This document shows, piece after piece, positions 8,600 to 17,331 of a stretch of DNA of 64,000 bases. The notes under the pieces were generated by a model. The model saw only the letters and a program-made list of their open reading frames with translations, did no database searches and was not told the DNA's origin. A program made the translations under genes and the position numbers. The stretch's first letter is position 1, and every line of letters begins with the position of its first letter. Origin of the DNA: Rhodoblastus sp. (GTDB lineage Bacteria > Pseudomonadota > Alphaproteobacteria > Rhizobiales > Beijerinckiaceae); contig DAIRCS010000002.1 of assembly GCA_036796555.1 (NCBI GenBank), forward strand, positions 10,233-74,232, written 5' to 3'.

Positions 8600-8652
8600 C
8601 TTCTCCCTCGCCGCCAGGCTCGTAAGATAAGTCTATAGAGTGGGAAATTTGA

Positions 8653-8667
8653 TAACATAATTTTATA
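8653..8667. promoter_or_regulatory. candidate LysR box (ATAA-N7-TTAT, a T-N11-A type dyad) in an AT-rich divergent promoter region
   Basis: ATAACATAATTTTAT lies in the only AT-rich stretch (about 8620-8680) between the LysR gene and the DHDPS-like gene. Confidence 0.3.
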
Positions 8668-8747
8668 AATTAATAATGCGCCGCCGCCTTTTTCCCCGCG
8701 CCGCCGCCGGGCACATTTTGGGACGTCAGGGATCGGGGAGGCAGCGC

Positions 8748-9701
8748 GTGAACTACGGCAAGGCGGACGCCAAGGCCCATGCCCGCAGGACCATGAAGGG
8801 TATCTGGGCGGCGGCGCTGACGCCGTTCGCCGCGAACGGCGCGATCGACGCGGACGGCTTCCAGTCCAACATCCGACACTGGCTCGACGATCTGGGGATC
8901 GATGGCCTGTTCATCGCCGGCAAGCAGGGCGAGTTCTTCTCCATGTCGGTCGAGGAGCGCAAGCGCGTCTTCGACCTGGCGGTAGAGGCGTCGAAGGGGC
9001 GGGGGCAGACGATCATGTCCTGCTCCGACCAGAACATGGATGTCGTGATCGACCTCGCGCGCCACGCCGAGAAATGCGGCGCCGACTACATCGTCGTTCA
9101 CGCGCCGGTGCTGCATTTCTTCAAGGCGCAGGACGAGACGCTGCTGAATTACTACAAGACCGTCTGCGGCGCCGTGGATATCGGCGTCGCGCTGTGGAGC
9201 CATCCCGATTCCGGCTATCTGATGAGCCCCGAGCTCTGCAATCGGCTGGCCGACATCGAGAACGTCGTCGCGATCAAATATTCGACGCCGCGGCCGATGT
9301 ACGCCGAGCTCACGCGGCTCGCCTCGGATCGCATTCTCGTTTCGACCGCCTCGGAAGAGGAGTGGCTCGACAACATTCTCGAACTCGGCTGGCGGCTCTA
9401 TCTCTGCTCGTCGCCGCCCTATCTGATGCAGAGCGCGACTGACCGGCGGATGCGCGAATACACCGACCTCGCCTTCGCCGGCAGGGCGGAGGAGGCACGG
9501 CGCGTGCGGGATTCGCTGGATCCGGTGCGCCATGCGCTGAAGTCGACGCGCCCGCCGGAAAAGCCGCATGCGCATCAAAAATACTGGCAGGAGCTGCTCG
9601 GGCAGGTCGGCGGCGGCGTGCGCGCGCCGCTGCTGGAACTGACCGAAGCCGAGAAGGCCGCCACCCGGGCCGCGTTCGAGGCCTGCGGGTTGAAAGTCTA
9701 G
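8748..9701 (+). CDS. dihydrodipicolinate synthase / N-acetylneuraminate lyase family (class I aldolase-type lyase or dehydratase)
   Basis: MKGIWAAALTPFAANGAIDADGF...DGLFIAGKQGEFFSMSVEERKRVF...VVAIKYS fits the DHDPS-family layout, including the Schiff-base Lys context (IKYS). GTG at 8748 is preceded by GGGGAGG; ATG at 8793 is the alternative start. Confidence 0.8.
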   Translation: MNYGKADAKAHARRTMKGIWAAALTPFAANGAIDADGFQSNIRHWLDDLGIDGLFIAGKQGEFFSMSVEERKRVFDLAVEASKGRGQTIMSCSDQNMDVVIDLARHAEKCGADYIVVHAPVLHFFKAQDETLLNYYKTVCGAVDIGVALWSHPDSGYLMSPELCNRLADIENVVAIKYSTPRPMYAELTRLASDRILVSTASEEEWLDNILELGWRLYLCSSPPYLMQSATDRRMREYTDLAFAGRAEEARRVRDSLDPVRHALKSTRPPEKPHAHQKYWQELLGQVGGGVRAPLLELTEAEKAATRAAFEACGLKV

Positions 9702-14878: not shown

Positions 14879-15869
14879 TCCCGCGCCGTCCTCTCTGTCG
14901 CGCTACGTCGCGGCCCTCGCGCTGCTCGCGGCCCTGTGCGCCTTTCCCTGGATCGCCGACAGGCTCGGCCAGCCGGCGCTCACGCCGCTCGCCGCCCGCA
15001 TCCTCATCTACGGAATCGCCGCGGCGAGCCTCAATCTCGCGCTCGGCTTCGGCGGCATGGTCTCGTTCGGCCACGCGGCCTTCTTCGGTCTCGGCGGCTA
15101 CGTCGCCGGCGTCATGGCGCTCGGCGCGCGCACCGGCGATCTCGCCTTCGGCCTGTTTCCGGGGTCGGACCAGCTCGTCGTCGTGCTCCTCGTCGCCGCC
15201 GCGTTCGGCGGCCTGCTCGCCGCCGTCATCGGCGGCCTGTCGCTGCGCACGGCGGGCGTGCAATTCATCATGATCACGCTCGCCTTCGCGCAGATGATGT
15301 TTTTTCTGTTCCTGTCGCTGAAGGCCTACGGCGGCGATGACGGACTCACCATCCGCCGCCGGCTAGCGCTCGGCGCGCTCGACATGCGCGACGACAAGAC
15401 GCTTTATTTCATCGCGCTCGCCTGCGCCGTCGCGATCTTCCTGCTGCTGTGGCGCATCGTGGTCTCGCGCTTCGGCCGCGCTTTATCGGGCGTGCGGCAG
15501 AACGAAATGCGCATGCAGGCGATCGGCGTCGCGCCGCGCCGCTACAGGCTCGCGGCCTTCGTCATGTCCGGCGTCGGCGCGGCTGTCGCCGGCGCCCTGA
15601 TGGCCAACCAGATGCGCTTCGTCTCGCCCGATATGCTGCACTGGACCAAGTCGGGCGAACTCATGATCATGGTCATTCTCGGCGGCGTCGGCACGCTGCT
15701 CGGCCCCTTTCTCGGCGCGGCGACGCTCGTCGGCCTCGAGACGGTCCTCGGCGCATGGACCGAGAACTGGCAATTGCTGCTCGGGCCCGCTCTTCTCGCG
15801 ATCGTTCTGTTCACCCACGGCGGGCTGGTGGGACTGGCGGCCGCGCTCGGAGTCGGGAAGCGCTCATGA
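14871..15869 (+). CDS. branched-chain amino-acid ABC transporter permease (LivM-like)
   Basis: 332 aa, hydrophobic, with NLALGFGGMVSFGHAAFFGLGGY. Overlaps the livH-like stop by 8 nt. Confidence 0.85.
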   Translation: MADPAPSSLSRYVAALALLAALCAFPWIADRLGQPALTPLAARILIYGIAAASLNLALGFGGMVSFGHAAFFGLGGYVAGVMALGARTGDLAFGLFPGSDQLVVVLLVAAAFGGLLAAVIGGLSLRTAGVQFIMITLAFAQMMFFLFLSLKAYGGDDGLTIRRRLALGALDMRDDKTLYFIALACAVAIFLLLWRIVVSRFGRALSGVRQNEMRMQAIGVAPRRYRLAAFVMSGVGAAVAGALMANQMRFVSPDMLHWTKSGELMIMVILGGVGTLLGPFLGAATLVGLETVLGAWTENWQLLLGPALLAIVLFTHGGLVGLAAALGVGKRS

Positions 15870-16630
15870 CGGCGGATGCGCAAGCCCCGCTGCTCGACGT
15901 GCGCGGCCTGCGCAAGAGGTTTGGCGGGCTGGTGGCGACCGACAATGTGTCGCTCGACGTGCGGCCGGGCGAAATTCACGCGCTGATCGGCCCCAACGGC
16001 GCCGGCAAATCGACATTGATCGCCCAGCTCATCGGCCAGCTTCGTCACGACGGCGGCGAAATCCTGCTCGGCGGCGCGCGCATCGACCAGCTTCCCGCCT
16101 CGGCGCGCGTGCGGCGCGGGCTCGGCCGCACATTCCAGATCACGCAGCTTCTGCCCGAATTTTCCGCGCTGGAGAATGTGGCTCTGGCGATCCAGGCGCG
16201 CGAGGGCCACAGCTTCCGCTTCCTGCGCGCCGCAGCGCGCGAGGAGCGCCTGAACGCGCCCGCGCGCCGGCGATTGGAAGAGGCCGGTCTCGCCGCGCGG
16301 GCGCATGTGAAAGTCGCGGCGCTCTCGCAGGGCGAGCGCAAGCAGCTCGAACTCGCCATCGCGCTCGCCGGCGAGCCGCGCCTGCTTCTGCTCGACGAGC
16401 CCATGGCGGGCCTCGGCCCCGGCGAGAGCGCCGAAATGGTCGAGACGTTGCGGGCTCTGAAGGGGCAGGTCGGCATGCTCTTGGTCGAGCACGACATGGA
16501 CGCGGTCTTCGCGCTCGCCGACCGCATTTCCGTGCTCGTCTACGGCAGAATCGTCGCAACCGGCGATCCCGCCGCGATCCGCGACGATCCCGTGGTGCAT
16601 ACGGCCTATCTCGGCGAGGGAGACGCCTGA
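15866..16630 (+). CDS. ABC transporter ATP-binding protein (LivG-like)
   Basis: ATG at 15866. Walker A GPNGAGKST, signature LSQGERKQLE, Walker B LLLLDEP. Confidence 0.9.
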   Translation: MTADAQAPLLDVRGLRKRFGGLVATDNVSLDVRPGEIHALIGPNGAGKSTLIAQLIGQLRHDGGEILLGGARIDQLPASARVRRGLGRTFQITQLLPEFSALENVALAIQAREGHSFRFLRAAAREERLNAPARRRLEEAGLAARAHVKVAALSQGERKQLELAIALAGEPRLLLLDEPMAGLGPGESAEMVETLRALKGQVGMLLVEHDMDAVFALADRISVLVYGRIVATGDPAAIRDDPVVHTAYLGEGDA

Positions 16631-17331
16631 TGCTCCGCGTGCGGGCGCTCCAGTCGGGCTACGGCCAGAGCCAGGTGCTGTTCGGCGTCGACCTCGACAT
16701 CGCCGCGGCGGAGATCGTCACGCTGCTCGGCCGCAACGGCATGGGCAAGACCACGACGGTGATGACGCTGATGGGGCTCGTCCCCGCCTGGGGCGGCGAG
16801 GCGTCCTTCGAGGGTGCGAACCTGATCGGCGCGGCGCCGGAACGTGTGGCGCGTCTCGGCGTGGGGCTCGTGCCCGAAGGGCGGATGATCTTCAGCGAAC
16901 TGACGGTCCGCGAAAACCTCGTGGCCACCGCCGCCAATCGCCTGGCGCGGCCGGACTCGTGGACGCTCGCCCGCGTGTTCGATCTCTTTCCCCGGTTGAA
17001 GGAGCGCAAGGACCAGATGGCGCGCACCATGTCGGGCGGCGAGCAGCAGATGCTGGCGATCGGTCGCGCGCTCACGACCAATCCGCGCCTTCTTGTCCTC
17101 GACGAAGCCACGGAGGGACTGGCCCCGGTCATTCGCGCCGAAATCTGGCGCTGTGTGGAAACGTTGAAGGCGCAGGGGCAGTCGATTCTCGTGATCGACA
17201 AGAATGTCCACGTCTTGCAGCGCATCGCGGACCGGCATGTCATCATCGAACGCGGCCGCACCGTCTGGTCCGGCACGAGCGCGCAACTCCGCGAGACGCC
17301 GGACCTCGTCACGCGATATGTCGGCGTCTGA
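16630..17331 (+). CDS. ABC transporter ATP-binding protein (LivF-like)
   Basis: Walker A GRNGMGKTT, signature MSGGEQQML, Walker B LLVLDEA. Its ATG overlaps the livG-like TGA (TGATG). Confidence 0.9.
   Translation: MLRVRALQSGYGQSQVLFGVDLDIAAAEIVTLLGRNGMGKTTTVMTLMGLVPAWGGEASFEGANLIGAAPERVARLGVGLVPEGRMIFSELTVRENLVATAANRLARPDSWTLARVFDLFPRLKERKDQMARTMSGGEQQMLAIGRALTTNPRLLVLDEATEGLAPVIRAEIWRCVETLKAQGQSILVIDKNVHVLQRIADRHVIIERGRTVWSGTSAQLRETPDLVTRYVGV

Follow-up and report, generated by a model that had tools for sequence, protein, structure and literature searches.

How does a bacterium dispose of 2-amino-3-carboxymuconate semialdehyde (ACMS), the product of 3-hydroxyanthranilate 3,4-dioxygenase (HAO), when its HAO operon holds no ACMS decarboxylase (ACMSD)? 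The question is posed by a nine-gene operon in a 64,000-nucleotide stretch of DNA from Rhodoblastus sp. (GenBank assembly GCA_036796555.1, contig DAIRCS010000002.1, positions 10,233 to 74,232 of the forward strand; this whole stretch is called the window below). Here HAO is accompanied by a dihydrodipicolinate synthase-like (DHDPS-like) enzyme, a member of the aspartate dehydrogenase (AspDH) family, an aldehyde dehydrogenase (ALDH) and a Liv-type ABC importer. 3-Hydroxyanthranilate (3-HAA) and ACMS form the branch point of tryptophan catabolism, from which NAD synthesis, quinolinate formation and complete oxidation diverge. We know of no described organism that leaves ACMS by any way other than ACMSD or spontaneous cyclisation.

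We put at about 0.8 the probability that this LysR-controlled operon serves an ACMSD-independent catabolism of imported 3-HAA; that reading, taken together with the specific route favoured below, stands at roughly even odds. An uncharacterised catabolic route without ACMSD for an imported aminated aromatic had been proposed in the initial annotation of the window, and it is now supported by the conservation of the gene set, by its mutual exclusion with ACMSD and by a full-text literature search, in which neither the gene set nor the module was found described. If the reading is right, the module would extend a known catabolic pathway by a new lower branch and give hundreds of bacterial species, from soil, rhizosphere and sea, a third exit from ACMS; a so far unmapped part would thereby be added to the cycling of carbon and nitrogen from aromatics and tryptophan.

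The operon and the inheritance of its enzymes with HAO

The source genome, assembled from a metagenome, comprises 4.18 Mb on 291 contigs and is 87.5% complete; all genome-wide negatives given here cover its assembled part. The nearest named relatives of the window's proteins are found in Rhodoblastus and other Hyphomicrobiales. A LysR gene on the minus strand diverges from the tightly packed plus-strand operon (8748-17331), and the genes that had been named in the initial annotation were all found, in the order and on the strands it gave:

7694-8599, minus strand: LysR-type transcriptional regulator (HTH_1 83 bits, LysR_substrate 159 bits)
8600-8747, no strand assigned: divergent control region with a sigma-70-like promoter and the ribosome-binding site of the first gene
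8748-9701, plus strand: DHDPS/NAL-fold enzyme of a distinct subfamily, 317 aa (PF00701 123 bits)
9727-10296, plus strand: HAO, 189 aa (NF009763 269.3 bits, TIGR03037 255.6 bits)
10355-11206, plus strand: AspDH-family NAD(P) oxidoreductase, 283 aa (Asp_DH_C PF01958 112 bits, NAD_binding_3 PF03447 49 bits)
11232-12668, plus strand: NAD(P) aldehyde dehydrogenase, SSADH/KGSADH-like, 478 aa (Aldedh PF00171 492 bits)
12681-13916, plus strand: periplasmic substrate-binding protein of the importer, 411 aa (Peripla_BP_6 268 bits)
13964-14878, plus strand: ABC permease, LivH/UrtB-like (BPD_transp_2 121 bits), conserved in related loci
14871-15869, plus strand: ABC permease, LivM/UrtC-like (BPD_transp_2 119 bits)
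15866-16630, plus strand: ABC ATPase, LivG-like (ABC_tran and BCA_ABC_TP_C)
16630-17331, plus strand: ABC ATPase, LivF-like, last gene of the operon (ABC_tran 89 bits)

The gaps along the operon measure 25, 58, 25, 12 and 47 nt and are followed by overlaps of 8, 4 and 1 nt, the start codon of the LivG-like ATPase (ATG 15866) and the stop of the LivM-like permease forming an ATGA junction. Because the gaps are short or give way to overlaps, and because the gene downstream of the LivF-like ATPase lies on the opposite strand and is convergent, a single transcription unit of nine genes is plausible. The frame of the NadX-like (AspDH-family) gene, 10355-11206, is a correction of the longer open reading frames in the mechanical list of the window; the open reading frame 10507-11328, which is without any family match, was likewise rejected as the NadX gene. 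The LysR regulator met no NCBIfam equivalog cut-off.

Is the dioxygenase a true HAO? It had been regarded as genuine for its His/Glu/His and CxxC...CxxC sites, and comparison with characterised enzymes bears this out. The protein passes both HAO equivalog cut-offs (NF009763, 269.3 against 220; TIGR03037, 255.6 against 145.95) and is 63% identical (242 bits) to the solved HAO of Cupriavidus metallidurans (1yfu). Its iron site, H59, E65 and H103, aligns with H51, E57 and H95 of 1yfu; R55, R107 and E118 align with R47, R99 and E110, which hold 3-HAA in that enzyme; and C133, C136, C170 and C173 make up the rubredoxin-like site. All ten of these residues are invariant in 30 HAOs taken from the related loci described below (module HAOs). 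It is strongly supported by these matches that the enzyme, the single HAO in the genome, would open the ring of 3-HAA to give ACMS.

A search for conserved neighbourhoods holding HAO, Asp_DH and DHDPS-like genes had been suggested with the initial annotation, and such neighbourhoods proved to be common. When one genome per species was scanned, relatives of the DHDPS-like enzyme were found in at least 498 species, and the best 80 were examined at locus level. All 80 are alphaproteobacterial, at 74-90% identity, and in 79 of them HAO directly follows the DHDPS-like gene. The exception, in Rhizobium sp. PL01 (locus L066, approximately 8500-12000), has the ALDH, the DHDPS-like (78% identical) and the AspDH-like genes and a Liv importer, with no HAO between. 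Features were counted in the 66 loci with full flanks. An ALDH orthologue is present in 55 and the large subunit of a molybdenum hydroxylase (761 aa) takes its place in 8; no locus has both, and in 3 neither was resolved. Within 10 kb of the DHDPS-like gene, an AspDH-like gene was found in 55 of the 66 loci and is absent from the other 11. A Liv-type importer and a LysR gene are nearly always present, and in most loci the LysR gene is an orthologue (46-87% identity) that lies divergently upstream. Since the arrangement recurs in dozens of genera, it is beyond chance. The module genes also stand together in a Bosea record, in Rhizobium bangladeshense and in the actinobacterium Mycolicibacterium aubagnense.

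In a tree of HAO proteins, all 30 HAOs linked to a DHDPS-like gene fall in one clade (support 99/97), with the ACMSD-linked HAOs outside it, and the DHDPS-link label requires 2 changes on the tree compared to 16.4 on average when labels are shuffled. The Mycolicibacterium HAO nests beside that of Aminobacter, which indicates horizontal transfer. Altogether, there is strong support for a module that is inherited as a unit and consists of HAO, the DHDPS-like enzyme, an enzyme that oxidises aldehydes and, in most cases, a member of the AspDH family. Its distribution is patchy: in a phylum-level sample of 400 genomes the DHDPS-like profile matched alphaproteobacteria alone, and it matched none of the 14 sampled genomes of the window's own family.

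Distant relatives of the DHDPS-like enzyme, below 50% identity (P0124 and P0135), do not adjoin HAO and were set aside as paralogues. One of them, the 46%-identical P0124 (locus L188, 9001-17752), has TRAP transporter genes, a Liv-type importer and a BD-FAE hydrolase as its neighbours but no HAO, and may act in a sister pathway with a different substrate.

The decarboxylase branch and the source of 3-HAA

In the canonical lower pathway of 3-HAA, ring opening by HAO (NbaC/OnbC) is followed by ACMSD (NbaD/OnbD), 2-aminomuconate semialdehyde dehydrogenase (AMSDH; NbaE/OnbE), a deaminase (NbaF/OnbF) and the 4-oxalocrotonate branch (PMC5817917). The nba/onb clusters and the kynurenine cluster of Burkholderia share their first enzyme and intermediate, HAO and ACMS, with the operon studied here, and the canonical pathway follows the same catabolic logic, an inducible operon with its regulator that is fed by 3-HAA derived from 2-nitrobenzoate or tryptophan. 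Unlike them, the present operon is without ACMSD, an AMSDH-type ALDH, a RidA-type deaminase and 4-oxalocrotonate decarboxylase, hydratase and aldolase, and it has the DHDPS-like enzyme, an ALDH resembling succinate semialdehyde dehydrogenase (SSADH) and the AspDH-family enzyme instead. No RidA or FAH gene was found in it.

Do the two gene sets ever meet? To compare them, we sampled about 400 alphaproteobacterial genomes evenly, read 32 of their HAO loci with flanks of 8 kb, and defined the canonical set by Pfam as Amidohydro_2 (ACMSD), AMSDH-type ALDH, RidA and FAA hydrolase. A DHDPS-like neighbour was found at 11 loci, the canonical set at 8, neither at 13 and both at none of the 32, and the HAOs of the two kinds belong to different clades. 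The Amidohydro_2 protein of one canonical locus is a true ACMSD (437 bits to 2hbv) and was used as a verified query. As stated in the initial annotation, ACMSD is absent from the window; the query likewise found no orthologue in the source genome, nor in four further genomes that carry the module (Bosea, Aminobacter, Mesorhizobium and Tabrizicola), the best matches being paralogues of 24-33% identity.

This genome has two Amidohydro_2 genes, which encode LigJ and LigI, and a further Amidohydro_2 fragment of 82 aa, unassigned, lies at a contig end. On contig C46 (L007:1495-3615) LigJ, a 4-oxalomesaconate hydratase (683 bits to 2gwg of R. palustris), adjoins LigI, a 2-pyrone-4,6-dicarboxylate hydrolase, and from this pairing we conclude that the protocatechuate 4,5-cleavage route is present in the organism as well.

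A classical meta-cleavage lower pathway fed by HAO was considered and set aside: a search of five carrier genomes yielded no DmpG-type aldolase, so that this pathway is unavailable to them.

Could the operon serve NAD supply instead? On that account ACMS made by HAO would cyclise to quinolinate, the AspDH-family enzyme would supply iminoaspartate, and the other enzymes would be ancillary. HAO and AspDH are indeed textbook entry points to quinolinate, and an alternative source of it would be useful to an organism in whose assembled genome neither NadA nor NadB was found. However, NadC is not found there either, both nadC-like genes being ModD, so that quinolinate would be unusable, and there is no NadA for iminoaspartate to feed. 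Furthermore, the co-inheritance of importer, LysR regulator, ALDH and DHDPS-like enzyme with HAO across hundreds of species argues for catabolism and not for flux on the scale of a vitamin, and the module is mutually exclusive with ACMSD, the enzyme of the catabolic branch. We have largely rejected this account, chiefly on the identity of the nadC-like genes, and regard it as very improbable. The earlier statement that kynurenine-pathway and nadA/nadC genes are absent has thus held beyond the window, as a search of the assembled 87.5% of the genome turned up neither kynureninase nor NadA, NadB or NadC. The missing nadABC genes may lie in the unassembled part, or the organism may depend on salvage of an NAD precursor.

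As kynureninase is absent, 3-HAA or a close precursor would have to be imported. The Liv-type (HAAT) importer is complete, with a binding protein, two BPD_transp_2 permeases and two ATPases encoded in tightly packed genes, and its proteins missed all Liv and Urt equivalog cut-offs. The nearest solved relatives of the binding protein are 4evq, 4ey3, 4evs and 4f06, which we take to be Rhodopseudomonas palustris binders of benzoate derivatives, 4evq presumably being RPA0668. In a thermal-shift survey, Liv-type binding proteins of R. palustris, RPA0668/HbaE among them, bound benzoate, 4-hydroxybenzoate and salicylate (PMC3223731). The aromatic-acid importers of that species (HbaE/RPA0668, COG0683) have five components of the same families as the importer described here; the binding protein of the operon is about 30% identical (160 bits) to its solved relatives, and its genomic context suggests that it takes up an aromatic acid, most likely 3-HAA. 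Of the two classes of substrate considered in the initial annotation, an amino acid or an aminated aromatic, the solved relatives make the aromatic acid the more likely.

Some relatives may make 3-HAA themselves. Kynureninase is encoded in three of five other carriers, away from the module. In Rhizobium bangladeshense (L005, 5395-7143) PnbB-family, FMN_red and Flavin_Reduct genes adjoin the module together with a binding protein and an AraC regulator; by analogy with NbaA/NbaB and OnbA/OnbB, this trio is a possible front end that converts 2-nitrobenzoate to 3-HAA (PMC5817917). In Aminobacter and Mesorhizobium an FAD monooxygenase and hydrolases adjoin the module. Such neighbours are likely to carry out 3-HAA-forming steps in some relatives, a point in favour of 3-HAA catabolism by the module.

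The same neighbours bear on a further possibility, that the ring substrate is an o-aminophenol carboxylate other than 3-HAA which is likewise imported, for example 3-HAA in a substituted or conjugated form or some other aminated aromatic, and that a specialised HAO clade explains the non-canonical downstream enzymes. The module HAOs do form a clade of their own, and in many relatives the module is joined by hydrolases (BD-FAE/Abhydrolase_3), by a protein of the metallo-beta-lactamase fold, or by an FAD monooxygenase that comes with a second regulator and binding protein, extras that suggest trimming or hydroxylation of a precursor; in a genome without kynureninase, moreover, 3-HAA would have to come from outside. 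Against this, the residues equivalent to the 3-HAA-binding Arg47, Arg99 and Glu110 are invariant in the 30 module HAOs, the HAO passes its equivalog cut-offs, and the operon itself is without a hydrolase or monooxygenase. We therefore consider a substrate other than 3-HAA unlikely.

Possible fates of ACMS

If imported 3-HAA is the substrate, the module must, where it stands alone with its transporter and regulator, reach central metabolites with three enzymes after HAO. The structure of ACMS offers a clue as to how. ACMS is 2-amino-3-(3-oxoprop-1-enyl)butenedioate, that is, the enamine of iminoaspartate with a three-carbon enal on C3, and seen in this way an HAO beside an AspDH is no longer odd. 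The initial annotation had found the pair odd because each enzyme feeds quinolinate by a different route; the adjacency stands, the link to NAD does not, and the pairing probably reflects ACMS as a C3-substituted iminoaspartate enamine.

On this basis we propose, tentatively, a lyase scheme in which ACMS would be split into a C4 unit and a C3 aldehyde. The ABC importer would bring in 3-HAA and HAO would open its ring to ACMS. Acting through a Schiff-base lysine, the DHDPS-like enzyme would then hydrate the C4=C5 bond and cleave C3-C4, by the hydratase-aldolase chemistry known from the same fold, giving iminoaspartate (or oxaloacetate and ammonia) and malondialdehyde or malonate semialdehyde. 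The AspDH-family enzyme would reduce the C4 unit to L-aspartate with NAD(P)H, and the SSADH-like ALDH would oxidise the C3 aldehyde and thereby regenerate the reduced cofactor. The net reaction, 3-HAA + O2 + 2 H2O -> L-aspartate + malonate semialdehyde, would be redox-neutral and would keep the nitrogen, and a housekeeping MmsA-type dehydrogenase would drain the malonate semialdehyde. As iminoaspartate also hydrolyses spontaneously, the AspDH gene would be expected to be frequent but dispensable, as is seen in the loci.

A decarboxylating route resembling that of 2-aminomuconate reductase is about as likely as the lyase scheme, though again tentative. Here the DHDPS-like enzyme would be a Schiff-base ACMS decarboxylase that, in the manner of KdgD, takes off the carboxyl group at C3 and possibly the amino group too; the ALDH or the molybdenum enzyme would oxidise the C6 semialdehyde, and the AspDH-family enzyme would reduce the conjugated enamine or enone to an unsaturated amino acid or 2-oxoadipate. 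With no DmpG-type lower pathway found in the five carriers, such a route would have to end in 2-oxoadipate or an amino acid, which counts against it.

What can be learned from the enzymes themselves? The AlphaFold2 model of the DHDPS-like enzyme (pLDDT 91.7) superimposes on DapA and NAL (N-acetylneuraminate lyase) structures with TM scores of 0.80-0.83 at 20-27% identity. K177, in the motif AIKYS, aligns with the Schiff-base lysines K161 of DapA and K165 of NAL. Trp150 (LWSHP) occupies the position of the catalytic Tyr (Y133 in DapA, Y137 in NAL), and GKQGE stands at the pyruvate-binding motif GTTGE/GSSGE, with Lys-Gln in the place of Thr-Thr; all three features are invariant in 95 orthologues. 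The protein misses the equivalog cut-offs of DapA (95.7 against 206), KdgD (90.7 against 374) and NanA (87.5 against 281), and a fold search with the model returned generic DapA and NAL structures alone, adding no functional clue to those from the sequence.

Within this fold, NahE-type enzymes carry out hydratase-aldolase chemistry, KdgD and like enzymes decarboxylate through a lysine Schiff base, and L-2-keto-3-deoxyarabonate dehydratase is paired with a 2-oxoglutarate semialdehyde dehydrogenase. The operon shares with these 2-oxo-acid enzymes the TIM barrel, the Schiff-base lysine and, as in systems of this kind, an ALDH partner. The parallel that the initial annotation drew with pathways ending in 2-oxoglutarate semialdehyde is a resemblance of this sort and possibly no more. 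It differs from the solved members in its low identity, in the invariant Trp for Tyr and GKQGE, and in meeting no equivalog cut-off; HAO, to our knowledge, is the partner gene of no described DHDPS/NAL family member. We propose that the DHDPS-like enzyme acts on ACMS. KdgD is among its best NCBIfam matches, though below the cut-off, a point for decarboxylation as its reaction. Given how heavily the DHDPS fold has been studied, a subfamily with an altered catalytic set would be a new activity in a familiar fold. A complex prediction for the DHDPS-like enzyme with HAO, as would be relevant to channelling of ACMS, gave a score of 0.00; it was run without controls and counts neither way.

The ALDH has as its nearest solved proteins a Burkholderia SSADH (5vbf, 479 bits) and the 2-oxoglutarate semialdehyde dehydrogenase of Azospirillum brasilense (5x5t, 454 bits). 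It misses all NCBIfam cut-offs (TIGR01780, 410.7 against 646; AlphKGSA_gudD, 336 against 770; TIGR03216, 275 against 693) and shares about 31% identity with the AMSDH-type ALDH that the canonical clusters encode. By these comparisons it would resemble dehydrogenases of short saturated omega-oxo acids and not the muconate-semialdehyde type, which tells against the C6 semialdehyde of the decarboxylating route. On the other hand, it is about equally close to SSADH and to 2-oxoglutarate semialdehyde dehydrogenase, so that a 2-oxo-semialdehyde one carbon longer is a plausible substrate.

Where the ALDH is missing, the large subunit of a molybdenum hydroxylase (761-783 aa; Ald_Xan_dh_C, MoCoBD_1 and MoCoBD_2) is encoded directly upstream of the DHDPS-like gene. 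The loci with this protein are L058 (7743-10028), L060, L065, L068, L072, L074, L078, L079, L084, L089, L096 and L133-L157. No genes for Fe-S or FAD subunits were noticed beside it, although no systematic search for them was made.

The AspDH-family enzyme passes the NCBIfam subfamily model NF009828 (241.8 against 177) and stays below the equivalog models NF009827 (208 against 226) and TIGR03855 (151 against 206.55). An active-site comparison of this NadX-like protein, as had been suggested with the initial annotation, came out in favour of a canonical site. His236, in the motif N-G-H, aligns with the catalytic His of TM1643 from Thermotoga and of the A. fulgidus AspDH, and two residues before it, where human ASPDH has its shifted His, stands an invariant Asn (N234). 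When 61 module copies were compared with 15 AspDHs from alphaproteobacterial genomes that lack HAO, drawn from varied contexts, every conserved active-site column was identical; consistent differences were seen near the NPK(S/T)S motif, L256 (S in the generic enzymes) and S262 (T in the generic enzymes). Because the conserved columns are shared with generic AspDHs and the His is canonical and not shifted, the substrate is probably a C4 moiety of the size of aspartate or iminoaspartate.

Human ASPDH has recently been described as a reductase of 2-aminomuconate, in coevolution with HAAO and ACMSD, and its changed regiochemistry, with protonation at C5, was tied to the His two residues upstream (bioRxiv 10.64898/2026.06.05.730449). 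In the literature searched, this preprint is the sole paper that links the AspDH family to the 3-HAA pathway, and it treats the prokaryotic homologues as enzymes of NAD synthesis (bioRxiv 10.64898/2026.06.05.730449). The metazoan enzyme is thus likewise an AspDH-family member tied functionally to the HAO branch of tryptophan catabolism, by coevolution there and by genome co-occurrence and gene clustering here, and this precedent lends support to the decarboxylating route. The two cases differ in that the bacterial protein has its His where prokaryotic AspDHs have it and agrees with them in all canonical columns, so that the residue tied to C5 protonation is lacking, and in that ASPDH acts downstream of ACMSD in animals while ACMSD is absent here. 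The loci without an AspDH gene, 11 of 66, also speak against a decarboxylating scheme.

We also cross-tabulated Asp_DH_C and HAO over the approximately 400 sampled alphaproteobacterial genomes. Asp_DH_C was present in 29 of 33 HAO-positive and 68 of 367 HAO-negative genomes, and in 7 of 8 genomes of the ACMSD type, counts that are uncorrected for genome size or relatedness. This co-occurrence, which fits the decarboxylating route, echoes the coevolution of ASPDH and HAAO in animals.

Several of these observations weigh against the lyase scheme. All steps after HAO rest on chemical reasoning, and free malondialdehyde would be an unusual intermediate. The Tyr and Thr-Thr used by class I pyruvate aldolases are replaced in the DHDPS-like enzyme, so that canonical aldolase chemistry is not to be assumed and the enzyme need not be an aldolase. 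The molybdenum protein is closest to CoxL, 6-hydroxypseudooxynicotine dehydrogenase (Kdh) and quinoline oxidoreductase (Qor), and not to PaoC-like aldehyde oxidoreductases; since it resembles hydroxylases of N-heterocycles, the oxidised species could retain the nitrogen in a cyclic imine, and an amino-aldehyde in equilibrium with such an imine would suit the decarboxylating route. The module AspDHs form a subgroup of their own, 55-82% identical to one another and 31-46% to generic AspDHs, and with L256 and S262 altered a changed substrate is possible. Co-occurrence of Asp_DH_C with HAO, also in genomes of the ACMSD type, suggests a role not tied to the DHDPS-like enzyme. Finally, the MmsA-type malonate-semialdehyde dehydrogenase that the scheme calls for is encoded in all five carrier genomes, away from the module, but MmsA is too common for its presence to inform.

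How would the lyase scheme relate to quinolinate synthesis by NadX and NadA? The enzyme family and the C4 chemistry of aspartate and iminoaspartate are the same, and ACMS, which combines a C4 part resembling iminoaspartate with a C3 part, corresponds to quinolinate in open-chain, hydrated form. Unlike that system, the module has no nadA or nadC nearby or in the assembled genome, the proposed direction is reversed and the context is catabolic. One may go further and regard the lyase route as quinolinate synthesis in reverse, as a main job of many proteobacterial AspDHs and as part of an ancient ASPDH-HAO tie shared with animals; we consider this extension doubtful. We know of no physiological role of bacterial AspDHs outside NAD synthesis. 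Such enzymes have been characterised in vitro (PMC5554190), and the module, if read correctly, would give them a physiological job and would offer a tractable bacterial counterpart to the June 2026 finding on human ASPDH in the same pathway. Its enzymes might also become tools, for the removal of ACMS before quinolinate forms and for a redox-neutral conversion of an aromatic amine to aspartate.

Control region and flanking DNA

The control region between the LysR gene and the operon contains a promoter-like site at 8649-8677 (TTGATA, a 17-nt spacer and AATAAT; 10 of 12 positions match sigma-70), the sole sigma-70-like promoter in the 10.5 kb from 7500 to 18000. A ribosome-binding site, GGGGAGG (8735-8741), lies 7 nt ahead of GTG 8748, which is most likely the start of the DHDPS-like gene, since this site precedes it, homologues from three other genera begin there, and the alternative, ATG 8676, falls within the -10 box of the promoter and was rejected.

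An AT-rich motif, TTATAAATTAATA (8620-8680), overlaps the -10 region and is common to the window and its nearest relatives, L017 and L018. More distant loci have other AT-rich dyads (TTCATA...TATGAA-like) beside the LysR start. Both the motif and these dyads are candidate LysR boxes. An Rfam scan of the window found no RNA family.

The genes that flank the operon and its regulator are not conserved with the module at other loci. On the downstream side a 7TMR-DISM histidine kinase is encoded. The upstream plus-strand unit (2210-7697) begins with an SDR, which has a long N-terminal extension, continues with two FAD_binding_2 flavoproteins (3394-5094 and approximately 5129-6553) and ends with a 386-aa protein without a Pfam match (6537-7697) that is convergent with the LysR gene. 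Farther downstream, the region from approximately 47500 to 62000 has a G+C content of 52-62%, compared to 64-70% elsewhere in the window, and hardly any open reading frames with the high third-position G+C usual for the genome; it may be a horizontally acquired island.

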